DNA of 50,826 nt from a virus. The notes under the pieces were generated by a model. That model searched no databases. It saw only the letters and a program-made list of their open reading frames with translations, and was not told the DNA's origin. The DNA is taken from IMG/VR virus record IMGVR_UViG_3300025669_000046, positions 1 through 50,826 of that record; one strand, 5' to 3'. Positions 1,014-43,466 of this stretch are shown here, piece after piece (within the stretch, counting starts at the first letter, position 1; every line of letters begins with the position of its first letter). Both the position numbers and the translations under genes were made by a program.

Positions 1014-2750
1014 CTATTGCTCCACTATATTCTTCATTTTTATATTAGCTATTCTATCACCGTCATCTAAGTCGGCTACAAAGTACTCGCTTGTGGTATA
1101 GGTTGTGTCTTGTACTGGATTAGTTCCTGAACCACCGCTTGGGTCTACTAATGTCCAGTTAGTGTCACCAAAATCACCACCTTTTATGAACACAGCGAAT
1201 GTATTAGCAGGATAAACAACACTTCCACCTGCTCCTGAGATGTCCGGGAACACACCCTCGCTGGATAGTCGTGCGACTTTTAGTCTGTAATAAGTGTTGT
1301 TGTCGATGTAAGATGCTGCTGTTACAAATAAAATAGAAATTCCAGAATTAATTAATGAAAGTTTCTCATCTGAACTTATGTTTATTCTATATCCCCCATT
1401 ATCTGCTGAGTTCGTATTTGAATCTAAAAATGAAACTGATATTGAATTTCCAGCTCCACCTTTATACAAATCAAATTCCCATTCACCATAGGCTTGTTTG
1501 CTCTGTACAGCAGTTGTGCCTGCACTGTCACACTCTAGGTACTTAGTCCCAACCTTCAAGTCTGTAAGCACAGAGTCTGCTATTGCCATTTCATCTGTAA
1601 AATAAGTACCAGTGCCAGTTATGAAGGGGTCTTTAGTTCCAACAATGCCATCAGCACCGTCGTAGATCATGTTGTCTCTAAAGTACACCTCTTGAAAGGA
1701 ATTGTGGTATGCCTTAGCCTGAGTTGGTGTTAGTTCATAATTATAAAAATTCAAGTCAGCAATATCAAATGCACCATAGGATGTATCATTCAGAGCTAGT
1801 GTACACGCACTCATATCTACATCAGTTGAGCTGGTAATTACCACATTATGCCAAAGCCCAGCTGAGATTGTATCATTATCACTACCATTAATATAAGCAT
1901 TATCAAACTCTGCATAGGTTAATGTTCCTGCACTTGCTAGTATTAATTTATCATTAGCTGCACCCTCGAGTATTTGCTCAGTTGTAGTCGCTAGTTTAAT
2001 TCTGAAAGACACAGACTTTACATTGCCTAGATTTCCTAAAACTTCTTTGTCATCCACGCCATCAAACACAAGGCTGCCTTTGCCATCACTCAATGCACCA
2101 GAGATGGTACCAGTATTCCCATTCCCTGAGGTGTCAGTTAGAACACCATCCCCGCTTGGGATCATGTTATAAGATGCTACTAGACCAGTCTCCTTGCTCA
2201 GGTCAGCCTGCTTAAGAACTGGACTTGGGGCGTACTTAGTTTCATATAAGTTAAAAGAGTGTTGAAACTCCTCCATTAAATCGTTTCTTTCTTGTGTGGT
2301 TAGAAGTGCATCAAAACAAATGATTCTAGCAATATAAGTTTTTGTAGTTGGTGTAACTTCTAGGTCTGTTGAGAAATCTATACCACCACTAAATTGGCTT
2401 TCGGACATCTGCCATTCATTCAATACAGCAACATCACTATCTAAGTTATTAACATAATTCTCGGTTAGTCCAGTTCCTGAATATGAACCACCAGTAATTT
2501 CGAGCTTATCAGAACCATCATCTAAAAGAATTTTAGTGTTATCTATTGGTTTTATAAACATTATAATGGTCTTAACCCCAGTTAAAGTTACACCACTATC
2601 AATATCAGTAGCACTACCATCAAACAGCATAGCCTGACCCTTCTCGGTCTGCTTAAACCCACCAGTACCTGCTGTTAGTGTGCCTTTTATATTACTTACA
2701 GTATCTCGTAAACTCCCAAGTCGTGCATCAAAATTAAAAATCATAGACAT
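1014..2750 (-). CDS. LamG/concanavalin-A-like multi-domain virion protein (putative glycan-binding fibre)
   Basis: Two LamG-type starts (FNFDARLGSLRDTVSNIKGTL...MLFDGS; LVASYNM...LTDTSGNGNTGTISG...LVFDGVDD), plus WHNVVIT and DLNFYNYELTPTQAKAYH. Confidence 0.75.
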   Translation of the reverse strand: MSMIFNFDARLGSLRDTVSNIKGTLTAGTGGFKQTEKGQAMLFDGSATDIDSGVTLTGVKTIIMFIKPIDNTKILLDDGSDKLEITGGSYSGTGLTENYVNNLDSDVAVLNEWQMSESQFSGGIDFSTDLEVTPTTKTYIARIICFDALLTTQERNDLMEEFQHSFNLYETKYAPSPVLKQADLSKETGLVASYNMIPSGDGVLTDTSGNGNTGTISGALSDGKGSLVFDGVDDKEVLGNLGNVKSVSFRIKLATTTEQILEGAANDKLILASAGTLTYAEFDNAYINGSDNDTISAGLWHNVVITSSTDVDMSACTLALNDTSYGAFDIADLNFYNYELTPTQAKAYHNSFQEVYFRDNMIYDGADGIVGTKDPFITGTGTYFTDEMAIADSVLTDLKVGTKYLECDSAGTTAVQSKQAYGEWEFDLYKGGAGNSISVSFLDSNTNSADNGGYRINISSDEKLSLINSGISILFVTAASYIDNNTYYRLKVARLSSEGVFPDISGAGGSVVYPANTFAVFIKGGDFGDTNWTLVDPSGGSGTNPVQDTTYTTSEYFVADLDDGDRIANIKMKNIVEQ

Positions 2751-3511
2751 ATTATATCCCTCATAAATTTTTCATAATAATCTTGCCATTTACTTCTATT
2801 CCAATTTGTTTTAGCATGACAAACATTACATAAGGTTATTAAATTAATTAATTCATTATTATTTTTATTATAATCTATATGATGAATATGAAGTATTCTT
2901 TCTTTATCTGATATTCCACATTCTTGACAAATATAATTATCTCTTTCTCTAATTAACTGTTTTAATTTATTATTCCATTCTTTAGGATAAATTTCAAAAG
3001 AAATACCTCCTTTCCATCCTGGTGCATTTTCTCCTTTATATATTTCTCCAAAATGTTTTGACATACAATCTTTAGAACAATAAGGTAAATGATGTCTTAC
3101 ACTTAAACTTCTTTTTATAATACTTTTACCACAATAAGTGCATTCTACTTCTGAATATTTTCGTTCTATTCTATAATTATCATAACACTTTCTATTACAA
3201 AAATGTATTGAATGTCTATTATCTTCATTATTAGTAATCAATACTTTTTCACCACAATAATTACACATAACAAGTTTACCAGTGAATCTTATACTATCCA
3301 CACCAGAAGGTTGAGGATTTTTAATTTGATACTTTTTTTGTGCATCGTGTAATTTTTGTTTAGTTTCGTCTGTCATGGGATTTTCTTCCTTCCATTTATA
3401 TAAACATTCTTTACAACAAAAATGGTGACTATCTCTTTTACATCTAAATGGTTTCTTGTTAAACCTAGTTTTACATTGATCACATTCTACCATGTTTGCT
3501 ACTTTATTCAT
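2741..3511 (-). CDS. HNH homing endonuclease with repeated N-terminal zinc-binding modules
   Basis: Three CxxC...FC/YC-x3-C modules, then IRERDNYICQECG...LHIHHIDYNKNNNELINLITLCNVCHAKTN (HNH core). Confidence 0.9.
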   Translation of the reverse strand: MNKVANMVECDQCKTRFNKKPFRCKRDSHHFCCKECLYKWKEENPMTDETKQKLHDAQKKYQIKNPQPSGVDSIRFTGKLVMCNYCGEKVLITNNEDNRHSIHFCNRKCYDNYRIERKYSEVECTYCGKSIIKRSLSVRHHLPYCSKDCMSKHFGEIYKGENAPGWKGGISFEIYPKEWNNKLKQLIRERDNYICQECGISDKERILHIHHIDYNKNNNELINLITLCNVCHAKTNWNRSKWQDYYEKFMRDIICL

Positions 3512-3587
3512 TTCTTTTCACATTTAAACACAAAATTCCGATAGCCGATAACCGATTACCAGATAAAATATTATATTTTTTGAAATA

Positions 3588-5060
3588 TTATGGTACTACT
3601 GCACAACGCAGCCCGAGGCCGGTGCTCAAGGTCGAAGGACCATCGTTCAGGAGCAAGGCCAAAGACCCAGCATAAGAACCAGAGCCCCAGGAACCACTCC
3701 GCAGGAACCCACGCACTGTCGTTGATGCACTTGATCTATTACTATTGGTGTATATTCTACCCACACCATTGCTTGAGTTGTAATTCCCACGCATAAACAA
3801 ATCATTCCTACTCAAAGTAGTGTTACCTAAGTCAGTTTCATCTATATATTTTACATCACTATCAGCCTGGTTGTATCCAAACCAATTAAACCCAGCATTA
3901 TTCTCAGTACCATCATCATTGAACCCATCAGGCTGGTCTTTGCTTTGGATTGTATCACTGCACCAATTCCATACATTCCCTGCAAAGTCCCAAATGCACT
4001 GACCATTACTCAAAAATAAAGTACGTCTTTGGTATCCTGAGCTCTGACCAGTTCCTGAGTATCCATCATTATCATCCGTGCTCGCTGCTAGACTGTTTGC
4101 TGGAGTTCCGTCATTGTGCCCACTATAAATATAACCAGTTCCCACTGTTCCTGAGCTCCAGTTAGACTTGACATTTTCTATGTTCCTGGCAATGGACATC
4201 CATTGTGTGTTTGTAATTAATTGAACAGTGCAAGTTGCAAGGTCTGAGTCCAGTGCTCTAAAGCTATCTTGAAGTGCTGCACACTCTGCTATGCTCGCAG
4301 TTTGGGTTATGTTCACCCAGGGAGTTCCGTCTGCCCTGCTCTCTGCCTCATAAGCTGAGTCATAAGCTATATTCCCATCAGCAATACCCTTAATCTTCAT
4401 ATCATACTTAGACACAAAGAAACCCTTAGCGCCTGTTATGTAATCCGCTGGGACATACACAAATCCTTTATCTGCCATTTTCCGCATTATATGCTCTGAG
4501 GTTCTGCCTCTGTACTTTCTTTTGTGGTACATCGCCTCTACTTCACCAGGAGTCAGTGTGCCTTGATATATCTCAACTAAGTCCATTGTGCCTAGAAATT
4601 CATCTGAATTAGAAAATCTTGAACCAATTAATGTTTTATTGGCACCAGTTCCTTCTATTAAAGTTATTCCAGTTATAATTATTTCATTATTAACTCCTGC
4701 TACTGTAGTAGTAGTTGCAACACCATTAACATAAGCAGTCCCACTTTGAGCACTTAAATTTCCAGTAGTTACATCAAATCTAACAAAACCAACTCCATCA
4801 ACATTAGTCCCTTCACAGGTAAATAAATATCTATAACCTGCAAAACTCGTAGGATTACATCTAATCCTCACACTATAAGTACCATTCAAATCAAGGTCAT
4901 AATTTATCTTAGAGCTTGTACCATTAAATGTTCCCTTTCCATTACTGAAGTCTACATCGGTTGGTACACCATTATTTATTTTTCTTGTTATTTGTTCTGA
5001 TTCAAAGGTTTCCTTAAAAATAAGAGAACTACTTATACCATAACGTGATTCTTTAGTCAT
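3588..5060 (-). CDS. LamG-like + FGE-sulfatase/C-type-lectin-fold receptor-binding protein; DGR target-type C-terminus
   Basis: FFVSKYDMK, PWVNITQTASIAEC, LITNTQWMSIA, IWDFAGNVWNWC and a terminal RSGSW...GSLAL.L...PS....GLRC are CLec/FGE motifs. Likely start is ATG at 5060 after GAGGGT (the track uses 5075). Confidence 0.85.
   Translation of the reverse strand: MTKESRYGISSSLIFKETFESEQITRKINNGVPTDVDFSNGKGTFNGTSSKINYDLDLNGTYSVRIRCNPTSFAGYRYLFTCEGTNVDGVGFVRFDVTTGNLSAQSGTAYVNGVATTTTVAGVNNEIIITGITLIEGTGANKTLIGSRFSNSDEFLGTMDLVEIYQGTLTPGEVEAMYHKRKYRGRTSEHIMRKMADKGFVYVPADYITGAKGFFVSKYDMKIKGIADGNIAYDSAYEAESRADGTPWVNITQTASIAECAALQDSFRALDSDLATCTVQLITNTQWMSIARNIENVKSNWSSGTVGTGYIYSGHNDGTPANSLAASTDDNDGYSGTGQSSGYQRRTLFLSNGQCIWDFAGNVWNWCSDTIQSKDQPDGFNDDGTENNAGFNWFGYNQADSDVKYIDETDLGNTTLSRNDLFMRGNYNSSNGVGRIYTNSNRSSASTTVRGFLRSGSWGSGSYAGSLALLLNDGPSTLSTGLGLRCAVVP
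3603..3716 (-). other. DGR variable region (VR)-like segment
   Basis: 38 codons with only 8 A in 114 nt and 70/114 G+C (hand count) in an AT-rich gene. Putative variable codons are all NNY and sit where a template would carry AAY. Confidence 0.8.
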
Positions 5061-5241
5061 ATTTATTACCCTCAAATATATTATAAATCTTACTAATATG
5101 TTCTTTAAATTCTTTAGTCATATTACCACAAATACATTTACATAACCATTTATTACTACCATTATTAGTTTTACCATTTAATTCAATAACCGTTAAATCA
5201 CCAAATTGTTTTCCAGTTAAATCATGTGCTTTTCTTGGCAT
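5053..5241 (-). pseudogene. Truncated homing-endonuclease N-terminal fragment
   Basis: DLTGKQFGDLTVI...KWLCKCICGN is the N-terminal DNA-binding motif of HNH/AP2-type phage endonucleases. No nuclease domain follows. Confidence 0.7.
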
Positions 5242-5961: not shown

Positions 5962-6849
5962 TTATACTAGATAACCACCATCTACACAAGACATATATTC
6001 AATTGTTACTGTTAGGTCTGTTGCGGTTGCTCCTGTTCCTTGTAGGTCAATTGCTATGGTCTTTGTTGCGGCAAGTCGTACTGCACCAGTCCAGCCTACT
6101 TGTTTATCAGCTGCGTCCAGGTTTGCCTGTATAGCATCAGTAGTACCAATAAATTCTACTACTTGATTCACTCCACCCTCAACTGCACAGGTTGTCATAT
6201 CTGCTGTTTGTGCTGCATCAGCGTGAATTGTCACTGACTTAATCATACAAGGCTGTGTAGTAATTGTTGCAACTGTAGTTACTCCTGCATTAGCTGCTGC
6301 TGTAATACTTACTTCTTTAACTTGAATTACACCGTATTCTCTTCTATAAGCAGTTGGGGTTGCTGTTGTCCCGTCCAAGAAATCTTGATTTGTGTCTACT
6401 ACTGTGTCAATAGTTACTAAACTTGCTGGTATATCAGTTACCACTGCTGTGTTTAAAGTTGTAATTGTAGCAGGAATTGTTGTACCAGTATCTGCAAGAA
6501 TATCTGTAACATTACTTTGAAGTGTAGTTAATGCACCAGCATCAGGAATTACATCAGTTACTGCTTTTACAGCAGTCACATCACTTTGAAGTGTTGTGAT
6601 TGTGCCTGGAATTGTTGTTCCTGTGTCATTTAAAATATGTGTAATATCACTTTGAGCTGTTGTAATTGTTCCAGGAATTGTAGTTCCTGTATCTAACACA
6701 ATTTGCTTAGATACGGCTACTAATGAATCACCCGCAGTTGTGTCAGATTTCTTACCTACTACATCAACAACGTTTACATCATCAGCAGAGTCCTCTGCTG
6801 GGACTGCAATCTCAGTTGTGAAGTCGGTCTTAGTTAATTGATTTTTCAT
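5962..6849 (-). CDS. Virion fibre/whisker-like protein with ~22-aa repeats
   Basis: Repeats DTGTTIPGTITT(A/L)QSD(I/V)T; Thr/Ala/Val/Asp-rich. Confidence 0.6.
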   Translation of the reverse strand: MKNQLTKTDFTTEIAVPAEDSADDVNVVDVVGKKSDTTAGDSLVAVSKQIVLDTGTTIPGTITTAQSDITHILNDTGTTIPGTITTLQSDVTAVKAVTDVIPDAGALTTLQSNVTDILADTGTTIPATITTLNTAVVTDIPASLVTIDTVVDTNQDFLDGTTATPTAYRREYGVIQVKEVSITAAANAGVTTVATITTQPCMIKSVTIHADAAQTADMTTCAVEGGVNQVVEFIGTTDAIQANLDAADKQVGWTGAVRLAATKTIAIDLQGTGATATDLTVTIEYMSCVDGGYLV

Positions 6850-6861
6850 TCATAATCACCC

Positions 6862-7572
6862 TTAATAACTCTTTATTATATTATCATTTATAATATTAAT
6901 ACATTTATCTATATTATTTATTATATCATGTTCCCAAAATCTTAATAATACCCAACCACATTTAAATATATATGCATTTTTAGATTTATCACGATTTTTA
7001 ACATCTGTTCTATTATGCCAATAATCACCATCACACTCAATTATTATTTTATCTTTAATAATAGCAAAATCACAAACAAATTTATTCTTAAAATTATATT
7101 GATGTATATAATTTATACCACACTTTTTTAATTTATTTTTCATTATAATTTCTATATTAGTATTTATTTGTTTATATTTACCATTAATTAAGTTTTTAAT
7201 AGTTGCATTTCGCATCAATTGCTTTGATGCCTCAGTGTGTTTTTTATCTTTCATACCAGAAACTCTACCAGTCATTATTTTACTTTGACGTGCTCTTTGT
7301 GTTAATGATATAATTTTACCTTTATGTATTTTACTTATCTTTTGTTTAAAACTTAATGATTTGGGTCTTCCTTTTAATGTTACACTTATTTTTTGTTTAA
7401 CACTTTCAGGCATAGATTTTCCTTTCAACCAATTATTAGCACCAACTTTCAATTTTGTTTCTTCAGAAAGATGTTTACCTAAACGTGATTGTCTTAATTT
7501 TTCTTTAGAAACATCATTATGTCTAAAATATATAGGATGACCTTTTTGAAAACCTTTAAGTCCTTTTGTCAT
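6862..7572 (-). CDS. NUMOD3 + Vsr/DUF559-like (EDxHD-type) homing endonuclease
   Basis: GKHLSEETK, KKHTEASK NUMOD3 motifs; FVCDFAI...IIIECDGDYWH...RD...LLRFWEHDI. Confidence 0.85.
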   Translation of the reverse strand: MTKGLKGFQKGHPIYFRHNDVSKEKLRQSRLGKHLSEETKLKVGANNWLKGKSMPESVKQKISVTLKGRPKSLSFKQKISKIHKGKIISLTQRARQSKIMTGRVSGMKDKKHTEASKQLMRNATIKNLINGKYKQINTNIEIIMKNKLKKCGINYIHQYNFKNKFVCDFAIIKDKIIIECDGDYWHNRTDVKNRDKSKNAYIFKCGWVLLRFWEHDIINNIDKCINIINDNIIKSY

Positions 7573-7578
7573 ATATCA

Positions 7579-9252
7579 TTACCAACTTTTTCTCTGTTTT
7601 ATGATGAATGTATTTGTAGCACCATTATTGATTACTTTATACCTATAATATTTATAGTTGAGATTATCAAAGTCCCATGCAAAGGTTAAAGTGCCATTAG
7701 TCACAGCCATACTATTCACTGTGCTGTCGTTCTCTGCATCATAACCATAAATTGAAATCCAATCCCTGTTAGCTGCAGTTGCGTCTTCGTCATTTGTGGC
7801 TTCAATGGTCATTGTAATTACACCATCACCGTCAATGAACTTACCAGTCACACTTAGATTCTTATAACCATCCATTGTTGAACCACTTGAGCTTGGGTAG
7901 TAGTTTGTTGCAGCTGCCACGTCTGTGGTGTCAACTACCGATTCTGTTACATATCTTGCATAAGCTGGGTTCTGCACACTATTCTTCTGTACATCTAAGC
8001 CATAATCCATACTCACTAATGGAGCATTGATTCCTAGTTCATAAACATCACCACTTGCGAATGGTGTGCCTGCACCGTTAATTGTTAATACGCCTGAGCT
8101 AATTGTTAATGTTACTCCATTCAGACCACTCACATAATAAACTGCACCACTTCCTGCGGTTGGGATTATCTTAACATATACTAATTGTGCATTGCTTGTT
8201 ATGGCTGGATAATCTCCAGTTAGTGTGGCTGTTACATTAGAAGTGTACGCAATTGCTCCACCTTCAGTTCCTACTCTGAAATTAGCAAATGGAATTGGTA
8301 ACTCAGCGTCTAAGCTTGCATCTACCTTTAGCTTGCCTGAGCTTGTGTATTGTTGGATTACTCTATCACCATCAGTAAAGGTTGGGGCTGTAGCATTGTA
8401 CTGTCCACCAATTGGAACTGGATAATCTGTTCCTGGATAAGCTGCATTATCTGCTACTAAAGCTACACCAGCGATTGAGCTTACATCACTTTTTAATGAA
8501 TTAATAGTTGCTATAATATCTACTTCACTTGTGCCATCTGTAAGTGTTACAAAACCTGGTCTGGCTGTTGCGTCCATAGTTGGCATTGTGTTAGTACCAT
8601 CTGTTATATATTGATAACCTGCTCTTCCTACAGCATCCATTGTGTTTGCAGTGTTTGTGCCATCTGTCAAATAAAAATAACCAGCTCGACCAACAGCATC
8701 AAGAGTAGGCATATCATTAGTTCCATCAGTAACATTTACATTTAATGCTTTCTTAGATCCTGTAGACTCTACTACAACCTCAGTTGTACCATCAGTTATG
8801 TTTGTCATTTGTGTTTTATCAGTAAATCTGCTTGTGCCTCTATACACAATCTCGAATTCATCAGTACTCAATGGTAACGGTGTACCAGGTTCTTGATTCG
8901 CTATTATAATTTTTAAAGTTGTAGCAGTTACAACTGCACCTTTAGTGTTATAAACCCAACCTTGAGTTTTATTTTCTACTTTAATTATATCTTCTAACAC
9001 TAATCCTGCTACACTATCAAATCCAATTATATCTGTGTCATCACCTAGATTTGTAGTTGTTACATAATAATCATGCCCAGAGGCCTCACTCATCTCTGCT
9101 GTGATAGACATAGAGTCTACGGTTACAACTGCATCAACTGGTAACGGATTTGTGGCAGTTGCCATGTTTATTCCGTCTTTTCCAAGAACTAGAGTTTTCT
9201 TAACACCACTGGAATAATCCTGTGTTCCAGGAGTGTCTGTTTTTTTTGCCAT
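7579..9252 (-). CDS. Large virion structural protein with 21-aa TDGT repeats
   Basis: Repeats TDGTNDMPTLDAVGRAGYFYL / TDGTNTANTMDAVGRAGYQYI / TDGTNTMPTMDATARPGFVTL; beta-rich C-terminus. Confidence 0.6.
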   Translation of the reverse strand: MAKKTDTPGTQDYSSGVKKTLVLGKDGINMATATNPLPVDAVVTVDSMSITAEMSEASGHDYYVTTTNLGDDTDIIGFDSVAGLVLEDIIKVENKTQGWVYNTKGAVVTATTLKIIIANQEPGTPLPLSTDEFEIVYRGTSRFTDKTQMTNITDGTTEVVVESTGSKKALNVNVTDGTNDMPTLDAVGRAGYFYLTDGTNTANTMDAVGRAGYQYITDGTNTMPTMDATARPGFVTLTDGTSEVDIIATINSLKSDVSSIAGVALVADNAAYPGTDYPVPIGGQYNATAPTFTDGDRVIQQYTSSGKLKVDASLDAELPIPFANFRVGTEGGAIAYTSNVTATLTGDYPAITSNAQLVYVKIIPTAGSGAVYYVSGLNGVTLTISSGVLTINGAGTPFASGDVYELGINAPLVSMDYGLDVQKNSVQNPAYARYVTESVVDTTDVAAATNYYPSSSGSTMDGYKNLSVTGKFIDGDGVITMTIEATNDEDATAANRDWISIYGYDAENDSTVNSMAVTNGTLTFAWDFDNLNYKYYRYKVINNGATNTFIIKQRKSW

Positions 9253-10783: not shown

Positions 10784-11653
10784 TTATTTTATTGATTCTA
10801 TAACTTTTTTAAATAATTCTTCATTCTTTATTTTTACATCAATAATTTTTACATTATATCCTAATTTCTTCAATTCTTTTTTTCTATAATTATCCTTTTC
10901 TATTCTATCTTTTTTAGTATGCCAATAACCATTAATCTCAATTATTAAATTTTGTTTTATAATATAAAAATCACAAACAAATCTATTATCAATTGATTTT
11001 TGAAACTCATATTGTATATTATTTCTTTCTAATAATATAATAAATAATAATTCTGGTTTTGATGCATTATCTAATTTTTTTATTCTTTCTGAATTTATTA
11101 AGGAATATTTCATTTTTTCAATTTGCTTTATCTTTTTTTCATTATTATTAGGATTGCTCCAATATTTTTGTCGCCCTATACTTATTTTTCTACATCTTTC
11201 TGGATTTCTTAATGATGTAAGTAAATTTTTATATGAATCTGATTTTTTCCATTCTTTACTATGCTTTGTTTTACTTTGTGATATTGCATATTTTTTTACA
11301 GATGCACTTGTTTCTTTAGTTAATCCTTTATTCCAAGCAACTTTTCCTTTACGATATTCACTTATTTTTTTTCTTATTTCTTTTGATATATTACTTTTTG
11401 ATTTTTTGATTTTTTCTATTGTTTCTTGTGAATGCTTTTTACCTTTATTCCAAGCAACTTTTCCTTTATGAGATTCACTCATTTTTTTCCTTGATTCTAA
11501 TGAATTTTTTTTACCCTTTCTTGGGGATATCCTACCTAATGCTCTTTTACTCAATTTTTCTTTTATTTGATTAACCTTTTCAATTGAAAAACATTCACTT
11601 AATTTCTTTCCTTTATTCCAAGCAACTTTTTTCTTCTTTTCCATATATCTCAA
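10784..11653 (-). CDS. NUMOD3 + Vsr/DUF559-like homing endonuclease
   Basis: Four (V)AWNKG repeats, KHSQETIEKI; FVCDFYI...IIEINGYWH...KD. Confidence 0.85.
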   Translation of the reverse strand: MRYMEKKKKVAWNKGKKLSECFSIEKVNQIKEKLSKRALGRISPRKGKKNSLESRKKMSESHKGKVAWNKGKKHSQETIEKIKKSKSNISKEIRKKISEYRKGKVAWNKGLTKETSASVKKYAISQSKTKHSKEWKKSDSYKNLLTSLRNPERCRKISIGRQKYWSNPNNNEKKIKQIEKMKYSLINSERIKKLDNASKPELLFIILLERNNIQYEFQKSIDNRFVCDFYIIKQNLIIEINGYWHTKKDRIEKDNYRKKELKKLGYNVKIIDVKIKNEELFKKVIESIK

Positions 11654-17084: not shown

Positions 17085-17897
17085 TTATATATTTATTTGA
17101 TTATAATATGATTCTTTAAATATATTTAAAAAATCAATTTTATTCATTTTATTAATTTGATGTTCCCATAATCTTAAAATTTTATATTCTGCATTTTTCA
17201 ATTCAATATTTCTAAATTTATCATTTTTTGTACCTAATGGATAATTATGCCAATAATTTCCATCACATTCAATTATCATATTTAAATCTTGTATATAAAT
17301 ATCACATTGATATTTATGTTCTATATTTAATATTGGTTTATGCTTAATAAATGGAATATTTAATTCTTTTAAAATAATTTGAATCTTTTTTTCTATTGAA
17401 GTTTCCCATGTATGTTTTTGTAATAATCTTGCTTTTTTTATTTTTCTTCTTGCTTCTTTCGTAACAATATGACCTTCTAAATTATTTGCATATTTATTTA
17501 CTCGTAAATCTGTTTCTTTTGTTAATCCCTTATTCCAAGTAATATTTCCTTTATGAGAATCACTTAATTTTTTTCTTGTTTCTTTAGAACATATTTTTCC
17601 TTTATTTGCAATACCAATTTTTTTCTTTTGCTCCTCTGACATTTTTTGTCCTTTATTTGGTGAAACTCTACCTTTTAATGATTTATGTACCTTTTCTTCA
17701 TAAGATTTTACATCTTTATAAAATAATTTAGAACTTTTACCTTTCCAAATACATGATCTTGATAATCCTAAATCTTTATTTTTTAAATTAAATTTGTTTG
17801 TATATTCTTTAATAGTCATATTATGTTTTTTTAAATGCTTATGCGTAATACTTTTAAAACATTTCCCACAAATTTTACAATATAATTTAATATCCAT
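17085..17897 (-). CDS. Zn-finger + NUMOD3 + Vsr/DUF559-like homing endonuclease
   Basis: CKICGKCFKSITHKHLKKHNMTIKEY, NUMOD3 (KMSEEQKKKI, CSKETRKKLS), YQCDIYI...IIECDGNYWH...LRLWEHQI. Confidence 0.85.
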   Translation of the reverse strand: MDIKLYCKICGKCFKSITHKHLKKHNMTIKEYTNKFNLKNKDLGLSRSCIWKGKSSKLFYKDVKSYEEKVHKSLKGRVSPNKGQKMSEEQKKKIGIANKGKICSKETRKKLSDSHKGNITWNKGLTKETDLRVNKYANNLEGHIVTKEARRKIKKARLLQKHTWETSIEKKIQIILKELNIPFIKHKPILNIEHKYQCDIYIQDLNMIIECDGNYWHNYPLGTKNDKFRNIELKNAEYKILRLWEHQINKMNKIDFLNIFKESYYNQINI

Positions 17898-20551: not shown

Positions 20552-23356
20552 TTAAAACAAATTGTTCATTTTCGCCTTTGATACGAGTTTATACATCTTC
20601 AACTTCTCTTCGATTGTAATCTCTTTATTCTTAATATCTACATCTTTCTTGCTTTCTTCAATCCTTGCCTCTCTAGATAACTGATTCCCGATCAATATAC
20701 CAGACCCTGACATCAGGCTGTTTAGATTCTTAGGCAATAATGCATGAGCATTAGATATTGTAGTGTCTCCATGCGCCATGTCATCAGTCAAATCCGATTC
20801 GACCTTCTCGAAGTTATAATCATACTGCCAACCACTGAAGTGCATTAACTGCACACTATCCCGAAGATAAGTCACTTTCTTATTCATTTGCTTTTCGAGT
20901 TGGTTTGTATGCAGATATTCCTTAATCCCGACTGATTGTTTTCTATTTATCTTAATTCTATTCCCACGAACCACACGCACATGATGAGGGAACAACTTCT
21001 TTAAGTAATTAGACAACTGCACTCCTAGTCCATTTCCATCAATGTTCATCATTTCCAGACCGAGTGGCATGAAATGCTCAGACAAGTCCTGACAGACATC
21101 CTGCATGTAAGTCAAGTCCACACCTATTTTGTAATATAACCCCTCTTGGTTATAATTTATGTCATCGTCATTGAACACAGAAATAGAAAACATATCATTC
21201 GAGTACGCGGGATCGATGCCAATGTGCCATTTGCCTTGCTTATTCGGCCATTGGGATTTATCTAGACTGAATCGATCCTCGCTATTCAAAAAGAAGTTCT
21301 TATTATTATTTAATAAATTATCACGAATGAATTGTATGTCATAAAGCTTGTCGGTCTCGTCCACAAGCATTGCCATGTACTCTTCCTTGAACCGATTCAG
21401 ATTCATTCTTCGTCTTTTTTCGAGCTCAACAAGAGTAAGCCAAGGCACTATAGGGACAAGATCTTGCTTTGTTAGATCTTCATTCAGATTCACCTTCTTC
21501 GGATCCAATGCTGGCCACTTTCGTATTATAAACCCAGAATCGAAGCCTGTGTTGTTAAGCATCTCTATATTCTCTAACCAAAGATTGAAGCTCGTGAACC
21601 TACCTTTCCTTGTAGTCCCATATGTAAGTTGCAATGCCTTTTTCCCGATGTTCTCTCCGGATATAGTAGCACCTCTGGATGCGTCCTGCATTGCGATGTC
21701 TATGTTCTGGAACTCAATCTCGAAGTTACAATTATGTGAGAGTAACTTCATGCCACTAACTAAATAATTATGATTATTTTCTACTTCAAAATTATATACT
21801 ACTCGCCTTTCATTCTTTATAACAATATCTTTAATTTTATATATTTTATAATTATTTTTATTTATTTTTATTTCTTTATAATCATTATAATCTTTTGACA
21901 ATTTATACTTCATTGAAGGAATAATATATGGTGATATAATTTTACTTAACTTTAATGCATTTTTTTTATTGAATTTTATAAATGCTTTATTGCATCTTTT
22001 ATCTTTTAATAAAACAACATCAATATCATATTTATTTTTAAACCAATTCTTAATCAATATATTTTCTGCATATGAAAATGAATGAGTTGCTAATGTTGCT
22101 CCCCATATAACCCTACAACCATCATCCATAAACCAATATGCTAATGATATGTCTGTTAATTTATTTAAATAATTACTAGAAATAGTCTTTTTATTCTTTA
22201 TATATAATTTATTATATACATCTTTATATTCATTACTAATTTTTGAATATGCCTTTATAACATTACCACCAAAGGATGTCTTTTTTACTTTTTCTTTTTT
22301 TAAATTGAATATATCCACAATATGATCTAAATATTTCATTTGCTTTATTGAATGGCATGTTGAAAATATTGCAGACTTATATTTATTATATAATGAAATA
22401 TTTCCATCACCTAATAAAACACCATACAATATTTCTAATTGTATCTTATTTAATTTATATGAATTCTTATTTGTAAATGATATTAAATTATCATTTACTT
22501 TAAATTCTGAAATTGGTTTTATTTTAAATGTATCATCATAAAATGGATGAGTATCAGTGCACTTTATTGAATAACCTTGATTATGCATTTTAACATAATA
22601 AACATTACCATTATATGTTCTTTTATTTTTATGTACTATTTCCTTAAATTCTACTTTATTATTATTTAAGTTATAACTTGCTAATTTATAATTATCTATA
22701 TTTTTATAAATACCCGAGCATACTACTACTCCTTTATTGGTTACTAATTTTACATTACCTAACAAACATTCGTCATTAAATCCATAATTAATTCTTAGTC
22801 CTCTGATGTTCTCCGAGGATCTCGAGCTCGATGGATACCCAGTGATTGTCACATCCCTATCCGGGATCGTGATCTCATGTGCAGTAAATCTCACGAGCTT
22901 ATTATTAAATGGCCAATAAATCACAGACCCATCGTCTTGTGTGTATGTTAATGGTGTCATTTTCTCGATTATTTCTTTCATCTCTTTACTAATAAGCTCC
23001 ATGACTTTTTTATCATTGATTCTAACTATTGGAGCGATCTGATCTTTAAATTCATAAGTATTAGTACAAAATCTAATTACACCATCTGTGGTTAGTGATG
23101 TATTTCTAGACTTAATTATTACTTCAGAAAGAGCATTATATTGCTTTATCACTAAATCATCTTTATGAAACTCGGCTTGATGATTAGTTAGTTTAATTGG
23201 TCCCCATGTACCATCTGGGTATTTTACTTTAAAAACAGACTCTATCATTTTCAGATAGACTTCTTCTTTTTTTGTTACTTCCGGTGCAGGATACCAGCTC
23301 GGATAAACCGATTGCCATATATGATAATCACTAGGACTATCATTCACGCTTGGCAT
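20552..23356 (-). CDS. terL: Terminase large subunit, intein-containing
   Basis: IKLTNHQ (Q motif), IIKSRNTSLTT (Walker A variant), RGLRINYGFNDE (Walker B), nuclease WHIGIDPAYSNDMFSISV, MNIDGNGLG, HGDTTIS. Confidence 0.9.
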   Translation of the reverse strand: MPSVNDSPSDYHIWQSVYPSWYPAPEVTKKEEVYLKMIESVFKVKYPDGTWGPIKLTNHQAEFHKDDLVIKQYNALSEVIIKSRNTSLTTDGVIRFCTNTYEFKDQIAPIVRINDKKVMELISKEMKEIIEKMTPLTYTQDDGSVIYWPFNNKLVRFTAHEITIPDRDVTITGYPSSSRSSENIRGLRINYGFNDECLLGNVKLVTNKGVVVCSGIYKNIDNYKLASYNLNNNKVEFKEIVHKNKRTYNGNVYYVKMHNQGYSIKCTDTHPFYDDTFKIKPISEFKVNDNLISFTNKNSYKLNKIQLEILYGVLLGDGNISLYNKYKSAIFSTCHSIKQMKYLDHIVDIFNLKKEKVKKTSFGGNVIKAYSKISNEYKDVYNKLYIKNKKTISSNYLNKLTDISLAYWFMDDGCRVIWGATLATHSFSYAENILIKNWFKNKYDIDVVLLKDKRCNKAFIKFNKKNALKLSKIISPYIIPSMKYKLSKDYNDYKEIKINKNNYKIYKIKDIVIKNERRVVYNFEVENNHNYLVSGMKLLSHNCNFEIEFQNIDIAMQDASRGATISGENIGKKALQLTYGTTRKGRFTSFNLWLENIEMLNNTGFDSGFIIRKWPALDPKKVNLNEDLTKQDLVPIVPWLTLVELEKRRRMNLNRFKEEYMAMLVDETDKLYDIQFIRDNLLNNNKNFFLNSEDRFSLDKSQWPNKQGKWHIGIDPAYSNDMFSISVFNDDDINYNQEGLYYKIGVDLTYMQDVCQDLSEHFMPLGLEMMNIDGNGLGVQLSNYLKKLFPHHVRVVRGNRIKINRKQSVGIKEYLHTNQLEKQMNKKVTYLRDSVQLMHFSGWQYDYNFEKVESDLTDDMAHGDTTISNAHALLPKNLNSLMSGSGILIGNQLSREARIEESKKDVDIKNKEITIEEKLKMYKLVSKAKMNNLF
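21731..22768 (-). mobile_element. Intein with LAGLIDADG homing endonuclease (346 aa)
   Basis: Begins CLLGNVKLVT after NDE and ends VYNFEVENNHNYLVSGMKLLSHN before Cys. Internal LYGVLLGDG and LAYWFMDDG; DNA is markedly more AT-rich than the exteins. Confidence 0.92.
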
Positions 23357-23481: not shown

Positions 23482-23553
23482 AGCCCCTGAACGGACTCGA
23501 ACCGCTAACAATTTCCTTACAAGGGAAGCACTCTACCATTGAGCTACAAGGGC
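23482..23553 (-). tRNA. trnT: tRNA-Thr(UGU)
   Basis: GCCCTTG acceptor/CAGGGGC, D-arm GCTC-AATGGTA-GAGT, anticodon loop CTTGTAA, T-loop TTCGAGT, discriminator U, no encoded CCA. One C:A mismatch at the top of the anticodon stem. Confidence 0.9.
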
Positions 23554-28611: not shown

Positions 28612-28641
28612 ACTTAATCATTTCCTAATGTCATATATAAT

Positions 28642-28673
28642 TATATACCAAAACATTTATAAACATATTTATT
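28642..28673 (-). promoter_or_regulatory. Early-type BRE-TATA promoter with TTTTGGTA element
   Basis: AATAAATATGTTTATAAATGTTTTGGTATATA, identical to 36549-36580 on the + strand. Confidence 0.75.
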
Positions 28674-28706
28674 TATGTAAATAATATTCATTATCAATAA
28701 TTGATA

Positions 28707-34406: not shown

Positions 34407-35252
34407 ATGAGAAAAGGACAGAAAATTTCAGAAGAAACAAGAAAAAAAATGAGTGAATGGCATAAAGGAAAAATATGTTCTAAAGAAACACGAAAAAAAA
34501 TGAGTATAGTAAATAAAGGAAAAATATTATCAGAAGAAACAAAAAATAAAATAAGTATAGCAAAGAAAGGACATAAAGTTTCAGAAGAAACAAAAATAAA
34601 GATTGGATTAGCAAATAAGGGGCATATAGCTTGGAATAAAGGAAAAGAACGTTCAAAAGAAACAAGACAAAAAATAAGTAAATCAAATAAAGGTAGAATT
34701 TCACCAATGAAAGGTAAAAACCATTTAGAAGAAACAAAAAGAAAAATGAGTTTAGTTCATAAAGGAAAAATAATGTCACAAGAAGCAAAAAAAAAAATGA
34801 GTATTGTAAAAAAAGGATGTATTCCTTGGATTAAAGGTAAAACACATTCAATAGAAACAAAAAAAAAATTAAGTGAATATCGTAAAGGTAAAACACATTC
34901 AATAGAAACAAAAAAAAAATTAAGAATTATACGTTTAGAACAAATTAAAAAATATTTTAATTCTCAACCATATATAAATGTAGGAGGAAAGAATGAAAGT
35001 CAGATATTAGATAATATTGAAAATATTGATAATATTATTATTAATAGAGATTTTACATGTATAGGTTATCATCCTGACGGTTATTGTAAAGAAACAAATA
35101 CAATATATGAAATTGATGAAAAATATCATTTTGATTATAATGGGAATATAAATAAGAAAGATATAATAAGACAGAATAATTTAATTGAGAAATTGAATTG
35201 TGAGTTTGTTAGGATAAAGGATTTTGAAGATTCTAAATATTTTAAGGTGTAA
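34407..35252 (+). CDS. NUMOD3-repeat PD-(D/E)xK homing endonuclease
   Basis: About nine NUMOD3 units (KGKxxSEETKxKxS); C-terminus YHPDGYC...IYEIDEKYH...KDIIRQ. Confidence 0.85.
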   Translation: MRKGQKISEETRKKMSEWHKGKICSKETRKKMSIVNKGKILSEETKNKISIAKKGHKVSEETKIKIGLANKGHIAWNKGKERSKETRQKISKSNKGRISPMKGKNHLEETKRKMSLVHKGKIMSQEAKKKMSIVKKGCIPWIKGKTHSIETKKKLSEYRKGKTHSIETKKKLRIIRLEQIKKYFNSQPYINVGGKNESQILDNIENIDNIIINRDFTCIGYHPDGYCKETNTIYEIDEKYHFDYNGNINKKDIIRQNNLIEKLNCEFVRIKDFEDSKYFKV

Positions 35253-36539
35253 ATGAATATGAATGAAAATTATATATATTTTTTTAATAATATTATAACA
35301 TTCCAAAAATTCATAGAAATAAGGATTTTTGGTGTGAAATCTTACCCAATTATGAAATATGCACAAAATATGGAAGAATTACAAAAATACATTAAATTAC
35401 ACAATAGGTCTAACCTATATTGTAGTATTAACCCAAGAGTTACTAAAAGTGGTAAAAGCATTAATGTTAGTTATAGAAAAAACATATTCTTCGACATTGA
35501 GGGTATTAAAAACAAGCCCGTACTTACTGATTTAGGGTATTATAATAAGCTTAAAGATACAATAAACTATATTTCTAAATTATTCAATGAAAAATATGGT
35601 ATGAATGTGAATTGCGTGGTTAAATCTGGACGTGGAATGCATGTATATTTCACAATACAGAATTTAGATAATAAATATCAAATTAAATACATAAAATGGT
35701 ATAATGAAATTGTGAAATTTATAAACGAGAATTCACCCTATCATAATGAAATTAAATGTGACCCGCCAGTCAAGGATCTTCCGAGAATAGCAGGACTGCC
35801 AGGAACAATAAACTGGAAATATCCGGAAAAGCCTGTAAGGGAGATTGTGTATATTAATGAAAAGATTAATACAGGGTTTGAAAGTGTCTTAGATAATATA
35901 AAAGAGACTAAAACTAAGATGATCACAGAAAAAAGGACAATTAAAAAGTGCGGGAATAAAAAGAGATACACGAATGCAGACATTCTCGATGCACCGGAGT
36001 TCCAGGTCTGGAAGTTCAAGCCAAAGCAAGGAACTTCATTAAATAATATTCTGCGGTTAGTTGGGAAACTTCTAATTGATCGAGATAGCATAACCGATAC
36101 ATCTAAGATTTCTGAGTTCATACAGGATTGTGGTTATCCTTGGAAAGAAATGAATTTCGATCGGAGTCAATATCCTGATTATGAGTATAGTGAATCGATT
36201 CTTAATAAATATGTGATTCATAACATGCAATGGTCAGTCAATGTTGGATTTAAACTCCCATATAAACTATTTGAGGAAAAAGTTATAGATAATTCAATCT
36301 CGCACATTGAAATTGATTATGATACAGAATTTATTGGTTATAATATAAATACTTTGAATGACTTAATTGGGTTCATAAAAGTATTTAATAAAAAATATTG
36401 TGATAATAGAGTTAATAATGGGATGAAATATTATACAAAGGCATTAGAGCAAAATATAGAAATTAATATAAAGAGTGAAATATTAAGAAAGTTTATAGAA
36501 TTTAATAATTTAATTGAAAGATTAAAATACATTATATAA
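35253..36539 (+). CDS. Archaeo-eukaryotic primase superfamily (RepB-type primase-polymerase)
   Basis: NLYCSINP, IFFDIEG, KSGRGMHVYF, DLPRIAGLPGTINWK. Confidence 0.8.
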   Translation: MNMNENYIYFFNNIITFQKFIEIRIFGVKSYPIMKYAQNMEELQKYIKLHNRSNLYCSINPRVTKSGKSINVSYRKNIFFDIEGIKNKPVLTDLGYYNKLKDTINYISKLFNEKYGMNVNCVVKSGRGMHVYFTIQNLDNKYQIKYIKWYNEIVKFINENSPYHNEIKCDPPVKDLPRIAGLPGTINWKYPEKPVREIVYINEKINTGFESVLDNIKETKTKMITEKRTIKKCGNKKRYTNADILDAPEFQVWKFKPKQGTSLNNILRLVGKLLIDRDSITDTSKISEFIQDCGYPWKEMNFDRSQYPDYEYSESILNKYVIHNMQWSVNVGFKLPYKLFEEKVIDNSISHIEIDYDTEFIGYNINTLNDLIGFIKVFNKKYCDNRVNNGMKYYTKALEQNIEINIKSEILRKFIEFNNLIERLKYII

Positions 36540-36548
36540 ATTTACATT

Positions 36549-36580
36549 AATAAATATGTTTATAAATGTTTTGGTATATA
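36549..36580 (+). promoter_or_regulatory. Early-type BRE-TATA promoter
   Basis: 32-mer identical to the reverse complement of 28642-28673. Confidence 0.75.
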
Positions 36581-36616
36581 AATATGTATATAAACAACTA
36601 AATTTATGGTGAAATT

Positions 36617-37756: not shown

Positions 37757-39976
37757 ATGAGTTTGAAGTTTAATTTATCCGCGAGTAGCGTGTCGAAATA
37801 TAAGGAATCACAATTAGACTTTTATTATACATATATAGAAAAGTCTAAACCTGATACTCAAATTCTATCAGTTTATGGTAATGCTGGGAATATTGTTCAT
37901 TCTTCCTTAGAGAATTATATTACTTTATTAAAGAATAAGGATGTAACTAAGGGCTATGCAAAGACAGAAGTCGAGAAGTATTTTAGTACTCAATGGTTTG
38001 AAAAGAATATATCACAAATGCAGACGAAAAATAATAAACCCCTTGATATAAATAAATATTTTAATGGATTAAGGAATGCGTTTGTATATATAAATAAAAA
38101 TATTAATATAAGTAATAACTTAATTCCGGAACAGAAGTTCATTTTCCCAATAGTTAATACTAAAGATGCAGTTATAAATTTCAAGGGATTCATAGATCTT
38201 GTGGATGAAACTACTGATATAATTTACGACTGGAAGACAAACTCATCTATTCAGAACTTCAACCTACATGCTAGAATTTATTGCTATGCATATTGGAAAA
38301 TGTATAATAGAATTCCAAAGGCTATATATTATTATTGTAATGTAGATAAGCCAAAAATATATTATTTCACAAAAGATGAAGTTCTAGAAACTGAAACTGA
38401 ATTGAATGATCTATGCAAAGAAATCATAGGTAAAGGACATGACATTTCTAAGTACGATCTAGGTAACTATAATCATATATTCAATGTACATTTACAGAAG
38501 TGCAAAAGAGAGGCATTGAATAGACAGGACTCTGATGTGATACAATACAATATTGAAAAGAATAATATAATATTCAGAAATTTAAACAACAATTTAAAGA
38601 ATATAATTGATAAAAAATTTAGTTATTATATAAACGGTCATGAGTTTAGTGACTTATTTAAAAAGAGAATATGGGATGGCAAAACTCATTTATTTAGTAT
38701 AAAAAGTAACAAATTACCTATTGGTTTATTTACGATTTTCAAAAAATTACTTAATCAATATAATAAATATTCAGAAAGGGACTATAAATTAGAACTAAAG
38801 TATGATTTAAGAAATAAAGATATAATGTCTAATCAATTCGAGACTAAGTTTAAGGACAATAAAGATATAGAATTAAGATATTACCAAAATGATGCAATAA
38901 AAAGTGCGATAGAAAACAAGATAGGAATTATATATGGCGGAACTGGTTGTGGTAAGTCTATCATTTCAGCAGAGATTATTAAGAATATAAATAAAAGAAG
39001 TTTATATATTATAAATAGAATAGAACTTGTTGATCAAACTGCAGAGGTCTTTGAGGAATATTTAGGAATAGAAATTGGGAAAATGTCTGAGGGGAATCTG
39101 GATATAAATAAACAGGTCACAATCGCATCAATTCAAACGGTTAATAGCCTCTTAAAACAGAGCTCTGAGAATTCGAAATTACTAAAAAAGTATTTATACA
39201 ATACAAACATCTGTATTTTTGATGAATGCCAGAACGTGAAAGACGATGGGTGCTATAAATTGTTATCGAATAACTTAACTAATTGTGAGTATTTAATAGG
39301 CATGACAGGAAGTCCATTTAGGAACGATGAGCACACACTTAAAATGAAGGCATTAGTCGGTGATGTTATTTATAGTAAAACTACAAAAGATCTAGTATCC
39401 GAGAATTACTTAGTTCCGACTAAGGTTTATTTTTTAGAGTACGATACAATTTTTGATAGAAATTATCAAAGCTACTCTGACGCATACACAGATCTCATTG
39501 TAGGAAACATTGAGAGAAATAATTTAATTAAAGACATTGTAAGTAAGTTCGAGAATAAAAAGATCTTAATTATCACAAAATTAATAAAGCATGGAAAGTT
39601 ACTCGAAGAACTTATCCCAGATAGCTTTTTAATCACAAGCCAAACAAAAAAGGATATACGAAAGCAAAAGTTTAAGGACTTCAAGGACAATAAATTTAAT
39701 ATTCTTATCGGATCGGCTCAGATATTCTCGACCGGAATTGATATTCCCGATCTTGATATAATTCTAAACAGTAGTGGTCATCGTTCAGATGTTTTATCAA
39801 CTCAAATTATAGGACGAGTTATGCGTAAGTCTAAAAATAAAGAATTTGGATACTACATAGACTTTATAGACGACACGAGTGTATATTTCAGGCAAGCAAC
39901 TAAGCAACGAATTCAGATTCTAACAGAATTCGGGCACGAAATTTTAAAAATTAATGATATAAAGGACATACAATAA
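37757..39976 (+). CDS. PD-(D/E)xK (RecB/Cas4-like) nuclease fused to SF2 (UvsW/XPB-like) helicase
   Basis: LSASSVSKY, GNIVHSSLE, KGFIDLVD...IYDWKT; LRYYQ, GTGCGKS, DECQN, GMTGSPFR, STGIDIPDL, QIIGRVMR. Confidence 0.85.
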   Translation: MSLKFNLSASSVSKYKESQLDFYYTYIEKSKPDTQILSVYGNAGNIVHSSLENYITLLKNKDVTKGYAKTEVEKYFSTQWFEKNISQMQTKNNKPLDINKYFNGLRNAFVYINKNINISNNLIPEQKFIFPIVNTKDAVINFKGFIDLVDETTDIIYDWKTNSSIQNFNLHARIYCYAYWKMYNRIPKAIYYYCNVDKPKIYYFTKDEVLETETELNDLCKEIIGKGHDISKYDLGNYNHIFNVHLQKCKREALNRQDSDVIQYNIEKNNIIFRNLNNNLKNIIDKKFSYYINGHEFSDLFKKRIWDGKTHLFSIKSNKLPIGLFTIFKKLLNQYNKYSERDYKLELKYDLRNKDIMSNQFETKFKDNKDIELRYYQNDAIKSAIENKIGIIYGGTGCGKSIISAEIIKNINKRSLYIINRIELVDQTAEVFEEYLGIEIGKMSEGNLDINKQVTIASIQTVNSLLKQSSENSKLLKKYLYNTNICIFDECQNVKDDGCYKLLSNNLTNCEYLIGMTGSPFRNDEHTLKMKALVGDVIYSKTTKDLVSENYLVPTKVYFLEYDTIFDRNYQSYSDAYTDLIVGNIERNNLIKDIVSKFENKKILIITKLIKHGKLLEELIPDSFLITSQTKKDIRKQKFKDFKDNKFNILIGSAQIFSTGIDIPDLDIILNSSGHRSDVLSTQIIGRVMRKSKNKEFGYYIDFIDDTSVYFRQATKQRIQILTEFGHEILKINDIKDIQ

Positions 39977-40003
39977 ATACGTTTATAAATATTTTGGTAT
40001 ATA
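39972..40003 (+). promoter_or_regulatory. Early-type BRE-TATA promoter
   Basis: AATAAATACGTTTATAAATATTTTGGTATATA. Confidence 0.7.
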
Positions 40004-40025
40004 AATATATAAAATGTGAATACAT

Positions 40026-41660: not shown

Positions 41661-43403
41661 ATGAATTACATTAATGATTATTTAGGCTTAAATGAATTAA
41701 AGGTGTTTGCATTTGACACAGAGACGTACGGTCTAGAATTTGATACAATAAACCTAAAAGACATAAGCTTTAGTGATGGTACTAATTCATATTACTTCGA
41801 TAAGGATCATTTAGATATCGAAAAATTAAAGAATGTACTAATTAACGCGGATTTAATAATCGGGCATAATCTAATATTCGACTTGACTGTGATGTCTAAG
41901 TTCTTTGGTCGAAGCTTTTTATTCGAGATAAATAATGTACCACTATTTGATACCATGCTAGCACAATATATACTAAACGAAAATGCTAAGAAGGGATTAA
42001 AGCATCTAAGTGAGACTATTTTGGGATATAAAATGCAGACTTACGAGGAATCTGTTAATAGCCTGAATAAAGAAACTTGGATTAAGTATAGTCTAGAGGA
42101 TTCAATTCAGACATTTAAACTGTATAAATATTTTAAAAATAAAGTTAATAATAATAAAGTATTCAAGAGAGAATGTAAGGCTATACTCCCAATCGTGGAC
42201 ATGCAACTCGAGGGCTTTCTCGTGGACAAGACTAAATTTAAGGACATAAAAGAAAAAATGGAGAATAGACTCAAGGAAATTGAGGATGAGTTTATATCGG
42301 TTTTTAAGAAATATGGATTAAAACAAAATAGCCTGTTCGGTAGCATTATCCCGATAAACCTAAATTCACCAAAGCAGTTAAAGAAGTTTATTAATAACAA
42401 ATTAAAAATAAAAATTGAGGATACAAGTGTTAAGACACTAAAGAATTATAAAACGAAGCATAAGTTTTTTGAATTGTTATTGGATTATAGGCATATTTAT
42501 AAGTTATACAATAGCTATATTAAGCCTTTTGAAGAAAAACACATACAATCAGATGGTAAAATACACGCGAGTTTTAATCCAACTGGAACAGTAACCGGCA
42601 GATATTCAAGTTCTTCTCCAAATCTTCAACAAATCCCATCCTTTGACGAGTTTGGTATGAGGGAACTATTTATAGCAGATAAGGGTTATAAAATAGCTTG
42701 TTTGGACTATGCCGGACAAGAGATTAGGCTCGCAGCCATTATTTCTAATGATAGGAATATGAAAGATGCACTTTTGAATAATAAAGATATACATCTAATG
42801 ACTGCTAATAGTGTTTATAACTTAGGCATACCCTCTGAATGTCTAAAGACTAATCATAAAGATTACAAAATGTATAAAGATAAGTTCAATGCATACAGAA
42901 AAAAGGCGAAGATGGTGAACTTCGGTGTTCTCTATGGCGCAGGTGCGATGGGTGTTTCTAACCTCACAGGTGAGTCCGAGGATAAGGCACAGGAAATGAT
43001 TGATAATTTTTTTGAATTTTATACAGGAATAAAATTAAAAATTAATAAAAATTCTAATTATTTATATAAATATAATGAGGTTATAAATTTATTTGGTAGA
43101 CAAAGGAGATTTGAATTGATTGACAGTAAAGCAAAAAGACAATCATTCAATTTCTTAATTCAAGGTACAGCTGGGGATATGTTAAAGATAGACTTATATA
43201 GAGTTTGGAATGAAGTTGTATTAAAATATAAAGATAATATTAAATTAAAAGCTACAGTACATGATGAAATAATATTTATGATTAAAGAAAATATGATAGA
43301 CGAAATATTACCACAATTAGTTAATATCATGCAAGACTTTAAATTTGAAATCCCAATAATAGTAGATTATAATATAGGAAATAATTATGGTTCAGCTCAT
43401 TAA
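41661..43403 (+). CDS. polA: Family A DNA polymerase (3'-5' exonuclease + polymerase)
   Basis: FDTET, GHNLIFD, TGTVTGRYSSSSPNLQQIP, DYAGQEIRLAA, RKKAKMVNFGVLYG, NFLIQGTAGD, VHDEI. Confidence 0.95.
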   Translation: MNYINDYLGLNELKVFAFDTETYGLEFDTINLKDISFSDGTNSYYFDKDHLDIEKLKNVLINADLIIGHNLIFDLTVMSKFFGRSFLFEINNVPLFDTMLAQYILNENAKKGLKHLSETILGYKMQTYEESVNSLNKETWIKYSLEDSIQTFKLYKYFKNKVNNNKVFKRECKAILPIVDMQLEGFLVDKTKFKDIKEKMENRLKEIEDEFISVFKKYGLKQNSLFGSIIPINLNSPKQLKKFINNKLKIKIEDTSVKTLKNYKTKHKFFELLLDYRHIYKLYNSYIKPFEEKHIQSDGKIHASFNPTGTVTGRYSSSSPNLQQIPSFDEFGMRELFIADKGYKIACLDYAGQEIRLAAIISNDRNMKDALLNNKDIHLMTANSVYNLGIPSECLKTNHKDYKMYKDKFNAYRKKAKMVNFGVLYGAGAMGVSNLTGESEDKAQEMIDNFFEFYTGIKLKINKNSNYLYKYNEVINLFGRQRRFELIDSKAKRQSFNFLIQGTAGDMLKIDLYRVWNEVVLKYKDNIKLKATVHDEIIFMIKENMIDEILPQLVNIMQDFKFEIPIIVDYNIGNNYGSAH

Positions 43404-43434
43404 AATATACAATAAATATATATATAAATATACA

Positions 43435-43466
43435 AATAAATACCTTTATAAATATATTGGTATATA
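43435..43466 (+). promoter_or_regulatory. Early-type BRE-TATA promoter
   Basis: AATAAATACCTTTATAAATATATTGGTATATA. Confidence 0.7.

Follow-up and report, generated by a model that had tools for sequence, protein, structure and literature searches.

The lectin-like virion gene of a head-tail virus ends in a variable region (VR) of a diversity-generating retroelement (DGR), and the only matching template repeat (TR), Avd and RT that we found are on contigs of an archaeon from the same assemblies. We consider it probable, at roughly two chances in three, that this host-encoded DGR mutates the viral receptor-binding gene in trans. It also seems likely on balance that this head-tail virus infects a DPANN (Iainarchaeota-like) archaeon and has given up a retroelement of its own, retaining a VR and a short flank copied from a host target gene, and that the tip of its protein is hypermutated by the chromosomal DGR of the host during infection. 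The DNA analyzed (hereafter the window) is the whole of the IMG/VR contig IMGVR_UViG_3300025669_000046, a linear record of 50,826 nt with a CheckV completeness of ~25%.

The DGR target gene (3588..5075, minus strand), delimited by its ORF and by full-length homologues on viral contigs, lies in a block of structural genes together with a gene for an assembly-like protein, and encodes a lectin-like virion protein that is probably receptor-binding. Read from the TTG at 5075, the protein has 495 aa; gene calls in its relatives start at the ATG at 5060 (490 aa). The N-terminal concanavalin/LamG-like jelly-roll domain (~residues 17–183; 4527..5027, minus strand) was matched by PF13385 over residues 104–179, and the C-terminal C-type-lectin (CLec)/FGE-like fold domain (~residues 200–495; 3591..4478, minus strand) was assigned from an AlphaFold model and its PDB matches. 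The model, computed with 40 homologues as input, had a pTM of 0.74, and pLDDT in the C-terminal domain was mostly 75–96. Its best PDB matches were TaqVP 5vf4 (E 1.8e-8), TvpA 2y3c and Mtd 1yu1, followed by FGE 6muj; because the first three are solved DGR variable proteins, the CLec-fold reading holds. In the model, the VR takes up residues 454–494 of 495, at the C-terminal binding surface of the CLec fold, and the N-terminal part is β-rich, with Foldseek pointing to the lectin domains of sialidases and of neurotoxin Hc.

The Pfam scores of the target for Laminin_G_3 (23.3 bits) and FGE-sulfatase (21.1 bits) were both slightly below their cut-offs, which for the latter family (PF03781) is 23.3, and NCBIfam returned no match. 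The target shares only its fold with formylglycine-generating enzyme, and we claim no enzymatic role for it. Searches for relatives returned none in the viral contig collection and, by tblastn, none among GenBank phages; the C-terminal domain is 44–48% identical to those of archaeal pilin-like DGR targets. Within the LamG-like domain, the window and a related viral contig (L004) disagree at 43 of 180 nt in a patch at 4715–4895, and the next 1 kb is nearly identical. This patch resembles a recombination mosaic and is not adenine-specific.

The initial annotation had singled out the tail of this gene, from its composition, as the footprint of adenine-specific mutagenesis. The composition is as described: on the gene strand, positions 3603–3716 contain 8 A in 114 nt and have 61.4% GC, whereas the remainder of the gene is 34% A and ~38% GC. 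No 114-nt window in the whole 50,826-nt record is poorer in A (mean 41, sd 9) or richer in GC (71/114; mean 34, sd 9) than this segment. A TR was then predicted by placing an A at each site that varies among six viral VR haplotypes, which gave a sequence rich in AAC and AAT codons. An exact search of JGI metagenome contigs with 44 specified bases of this prediction returned a single contig, Ga0222697_1000183 (L015; 31.6 kb, 23% GC), from a collection that is incomplete, given that it yielded one TR contig and the same RT is known on 16. The anticipated sequence, differing from the tail almost only at A, is found at positions 7737–7857 of this contig, and the TR fragments written out in the initial annotation match it except at one base (GGT, where the TR has AGT).

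By blastn, the TR is homologous to 121 nt of the window (3595..3715, minus strand), which we define as the VR. Between TR and window VR, 19 of 29 adenines are changed and 0 of the 92 other bases (Fisher p 3e-15). In the remaining five viral haplotypes, 14–18 A and 0–4 other bases are changed, and the two 3'-most TR adenines are unchanged throughout, as expected near the homing boundary. Because the mismatches in the window are confined to TR adenines, the tail is a genuine DGR variable region. The TR of the closest other cassette, from another archaeon with an RT 80% identical, has 13 non-A mismatches to the window VR; the match at 92/92 bases therefore points to an L015-type cassette specifically.

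Relatives of the target form a tight cluster on contigs of 3–50 kb that are collinear with the window at 96–99.98% identity. Compared with the window, contig L011 has 24 differences in the 121-nt VR, 13 in the adjacent 59-nt flank (an indel haplotype) and 1 in the other 10.8 kb. Judged from these contigs, change in the viral tip outpaces that in the remaining genome about two-thousand-fold. With 24 differences in the VR and a single one elsewhere, the diversification is recent rather than frozen. A frozen relic, in which the cassette has been lost and the VR no longer changes, was among the explanations initially offered, and would fit both a window without a cassette and the recurrence of one VR haplotype in five contigs. 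It is contradicted by the presence of six haplotypes in genomes that otherwise differ at ~1 in 10,000 bases, and by the restriction of all changes to TR adenines, which leave it scarcely credible.

At the 3' junction of the VR (3536–3594 and its equivalents in L004, L011, L012 and L014), two haplotypes occur in otherwise identical viruses. One of them lacks ~10 nt and starts GTAGT-TTT, with three more bases matching the TR flank, and its C-terminus reads VVL instead of VVP; this shorter haplotype could be a trace of imprecise cDNA integration. Contigs also tend to break in this vicinity: L004, L008 and L010, from independent viral assemblies, end 185–470 nt past the VR, and on the archaeal side contigs end just 5' of the avd genes. 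These breaks are the usual effect of the VR/TR repeat and of VR heterogeneity on short-read assembly.

In the window itself, no TR was found: in an adenine-tolerant sliding comparison on both strands the tail matched only itself, and a repeat search detected only AT-rich low-complexity families. Six-frame searches of the window for RVT_1 and the Avd family were negative even at E = 10. The initial observation that the window holds no TR, Avd or RT is thus borne out but, as the record is ~25% complete, absence from the window is not absence from the virus. A pattern fitting both VR and TR had zero matches in IMG/VR, in a scan from which near relatives of the window may have been absent. An exact IMG/VR search with an 18-mer of the VR scaffold gave three matches, none of which aligned past the 18-mer, and these were dismissed as chance. 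Extension past the left end of the contig yielded only 30%-identical relatives; one contig (L009) adds 236 nt, with no join to the other end of the window.

Directly downstream of the target lies, as had been noted, a free-standing HNH homing-endonuclease gene (2741..3511, minus strand; Pfam HNH 24.8 bits against a cut-off of 21.4, and PHROG HNH families), which stands outside the DGR system. The idea that this gene had displaced the cassette was not upheld. It is a mobile insertion missing from the otherwise collinear L004, where the next tail gene directly follows the target gene, and therefore it did not replace a cassette. The window carries an unusually high load of selfish endonucleases, comprising this one HNH gene, four NUMOD3 plus DUF559/Vsr-like genes, and an intein with LAGLIDADG in a 934-aa protein (2741–3511, 6862–7572, 10784–11653, 17085–17897, 34407–35252 and 20552–23356). 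A single tRNA gene, tRNA-Thr (TGT), is at 23482–23553 (minus strand). The intergenic segment 29104–29220 consists of about nine tandem copies of a 13-nt unit (GCATGTATGCTAY), and an intergenic motif, TTTATAAAT...TTGGTATATAAAT, occurs in both orientations at 36513–36583, 39936–40006, 43399–43469 and 28633–28682; with its TATA-box look, it is a candidate promoter element. A reading of the 957-aa ORF as MCM/primase received no support from Pfam and was dropped.

On the archaeal contigs, the cassette is arranged in the order pilin-like target, avd-like gene, Avd, TR and RT. The 121-nt TR lies in the avd–RT spacer of L015, 238 nt upstream of the RT start. Avd (L015 7936–8280) matches NF033474 DivGenRetAVD with 91.4 bits (cut-off 80) and PF22296 bAvd with 79 bits, and the avd-like gene (L015 8261–8671) is weakly Avd-like (PF05635, E 0.003). 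Two tandem Avd-like genes are always present in this DGR lineage (L015, L006 and L109). The RT (353 aa) scores 69.7 bits for RVT_1 (cut-off 29.6) and has a DGR-type IGNLTSQ motif; the HMM searches suggested at the outset thus detected both a DGR RT and Avd at the archaeal locus and neither in the window. An identical RT was found on 16 contigs, with the same cellular surroundings in all nine places compared, and the TR is identical in 8/8 contigs that reach it. The archaeal target (463 aa) joins an archaellin/type IV pilin N-terminus (TIGR02537) to a CLec-type C-terminal domain with its own VR, in which 14/29 A and 0/92 non-A positions are changed relative to the TR; two haplotypes of this VR are on record.

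We traced the neighborhood of the cassette along contigs equivalent to the TR contig. Downstream of the cassette are genes for glycosyltransferases, a low-molecular-weight phosphatase, an Ogg-type glycosylase and PmbA/TldD, and then, 12–17 kb from the cassette, GatD and GatE. The GatDE amidotransferase is an archaeal enzyme; here GatD scored 408 bits and GatE 696 bits, against NCBIfam equivalog cut-offs of 310 and 456 bits, respectively. A contig of 31,607 nt, the same length as the TR contig (31.6 kb), is recorded with an identical GatE, and the nearest named GatE relatives are from Candidatus Iainarchaeum (DPANN), at 64–65% identity. RTs related to the archaeal RT come from Iainarchaeota, Pacearchaeota and Woesearchaeota MAGs, and two contigs of the cassette region are in one MAG, GCA_964531365.1. 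Together, GatD/GatE, the pilin-type target and the consistent cellular context indicate, on the evidence of gene content, that the cassette sits on the chromosome of an Iainarchaeota-like DPANN archaeon. GC content is 23–26% in the archaeal contigs and 30% in the virus, and three assemblies (ERZ27315617, ERZ27315654 and ERZ27315652) contain both viral and archaeal contigs.

Because the only TR, Avd and RT found are on this archaeal chromosome, in the same assemblies, supply in trans by the host fits best among the three origins that the initial annotation had proposed for the mutagenic machinery; of the other two, the frozen variant was rejected, and a location elsewhere in the viral genome keeps a minor share of the probability because the record is a fragment. 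This last possibility, in which the virus carries avd–TR–RT in an unassembled part of its genome, not adjacent to the target, and the archaeal cassette is just a close relative, is the main rival to a host DGR acting in trans, and we judge it unlikely, though worth serious weight. The canonical linkage of target, TR and RT on one replicon was not observed here, in a linear viral record that is ~25% complete. The related virus L006 has a cis cassette with an RT 57% identical to the archaeal one, so the lineage has carried DGRs on viruses, and non-adjacent targets of phage DGRs are known up to tens of kb away (PMC5758913). A viral cassette would, however, need a TR equal to the archaeal TR at all 92 non-A bases, a degree of identity that the cassette with an 80% identical RT misses by 13. 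The 90% identity cluster of the RT is a singleton among ~15 billion proteins, with no second RT at or above that identity, although virus and archaeon are each present on at least ten contigs; a recently copied viral twin cassette would therefore have gone unsampled despite the occurrence of the virus on ten contigs. The combined VR and TR pattern, moreover, matched nothing in the IMG/VR records scanned, and no cassette lies within 3.5 kb downstream or 47 kb upstream.

Across all archaeal loci, the sole DNA similarity to the window is a 184-nt block (3536–3719) that is 89% identical to the host target gene. The block starts no more than four bases from where the TR homology begins on its 5' side, spans the VR, the stop codon and 59 non-coding bases, and stops abruptly at ...TATCGGAA, past which virus and host are unrelated. 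Upstream of it, the viral and host target proteins are homologous but their DNA is not alignable. The 59-nt non-coding 3' flank (3536..3594, minus strand) is common to the virus and the archaeal target gene and absent from the TR flank; therefore it was not placed by cDNA. Taken alone, the flank shows 3 mismatches in 64 nt between virus and host. In it are a lead-in rich in A and T, the bases TCTGG, and three heptamers in tandem, TAATCGG TTATCGG CTATCGG (3538..3558, minus strand), which are the only tandem occurrence in the window. The layout of TCTGG plus three heptamers recurs 3' of the VRs in L018, L110, L006 and L005; among these, L110 is the second archaeal DGR, with the 80% identical RT, and L006 and L005 realize the layout with a different sequence, namely (A/C)TCTGAC repeats. 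From these comparisons, we infer that the flank with its three heptamers is a candidate target-recognition element of this DGR lineage.

A structured hairpin was considered as an explanation of the flank and rejected: in DNA folding, a hairpin or cruciform 3' of the VR had z-scores of -0.6 for the window and host versions, which is not significant, and the deletion haplotype alone folded well. A second viral orphan VR was noted on L005 (3904–4023; JGI 3300028581), an 11-kb viral contig with an A-poor tail of 62–67% GC and a triple-heptamer flank, on which no TR or RT was found.

Identical VR scaffolds and a common 59-nt flank might also act as homology arms, and the host VR is itself diversified, so the viral variants could have arisen by homologous recombination or gene conversion with diversified host VR alleles instead of cDNA homing. 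We regard this as improbable: 0/6 viral haplotypes equal either host haplotype, the viral flank keeps its three differences from the host flank whichever viral VR variant it follows, and the 5' homology extends over only ~27 nt. Gene conversion from host alleles would equally require the virus to be inside this archaeal cell. Another arrangement would be integration of the contig as a provirus into the archaeal chromosome that bears the cassette, making its VR an ordinary remote target within one genome, and remote targets of cellular DGRs are known at distances of >100 kb (PMC5758913). This arrangement is very doubtful in view of the ten viral contigs, up to 50.8 kb long, that have no cellular flanks, of a gene content of head-tail virion plus replication module, and of a search of the window in which no tyrosine integrase was found.

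With a host DGR acting in trans, as we prefer, host Avd and RT would copy the TR RNA into adenine-mutagenized cDNA during infection. This cDNA would home to any DNA that has the 3' end of the VR and the flank, replicating viral genomes included, and homing would rewrite the ligand-binding tip of the viral lectin protein. Such retrohoming into viral DNA in trans is suggested by the comparisons above, and in the BPP-1 system a plasmid-borne avd–TR–brt works in trans (PMC5758913).

DGRs are treated as self-contained. If the proposed mechanism is true, orphan VRs in viromes need a different reading, and the virus would be exploiting a host device for evolvability, or the host device would be acting collaterally on the virus. 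The TR/VR match would then also provide a sequence-based virus–host link for uncultivated archaea, and in this case it would connect a virus directly with a DPANN archaeon, a connection seldom available. For target recognition in this DGR lineage, the conserved triple-heptamer flank offers a concrete candidate that can be tested. The largest metagenomic survey sought VRs beside the RT only and states that remote targets are missed (PMC8144416), and another reasons that phage-associated DGRs should lack remote targets (PMC5758913). Full-text literature searches, whose coverage did not extend to Paul et al. 2017, returned no account of a viral gene templated by a DGR of a cell.

The system described here resembles the DGR of Bordetella phage BPP-1 (mtd VR, avd, TR and brt) in the C-terminal position of its VR within a virion receptor-binding protein of CLec fold, in differences between TR and VR that are specific to adenine, and in pairing Avd with an RT bearing an IGxxxSQ motif; the BPP-1 engine, too, can act experimentally from another replicon (PMC5758913). 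In BPP-1 the phage carries the cassette, immediately downstream of the target, whereas here an archaeal chromosome with a target of its own bears it and the virus has only the VR and flank. The GC-rich hairpin/cruciform that follows the VR in BPP-1 is also missing, and the triple-heptamer flank stands in its place. As in cellular DGRs with remote targets, such as the Treponema TvpA family (PMC5758913), one TR serves several VRs distant from the RT, in FGE-type CLec targets; in those systems, however, the targets share one genome, and here the second target is on a virus.

Paul et al. (2015 and 2017, as cited in PMC8144416 and PMC5758913) described DGRs in DPANN archaea, CPR bacteria and archaeal viruses. 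As in the DPANN examples, a small-genome archaeon uses a DGR to diversify a pilin-like surface CLec protein. As far as the citing papers describe them, those systems are self-contained, acting in cis, and a TR shared with a virus is not mentioned there. The nearest viral counterpart is L006 (ERZ27248895 k141_15247), which has an orthologous LamG + CLec gene (42% identity) beside the same 557-aa-type structural gene. Like the archaeal system, it combines a VR followed by triple heptamers with two Avd-like genes and the related RT; unlike the window, L006 itself carries the TR (6115–6234) and RT, with the TR 2.4 kb downstream of its VR. Non-adjacent and remote targets in a single genome are on record, and so is action in trans from a plasmid for BPP-1; here the setting is archaeal, and virus and host target additionally have a 3' flank in common.
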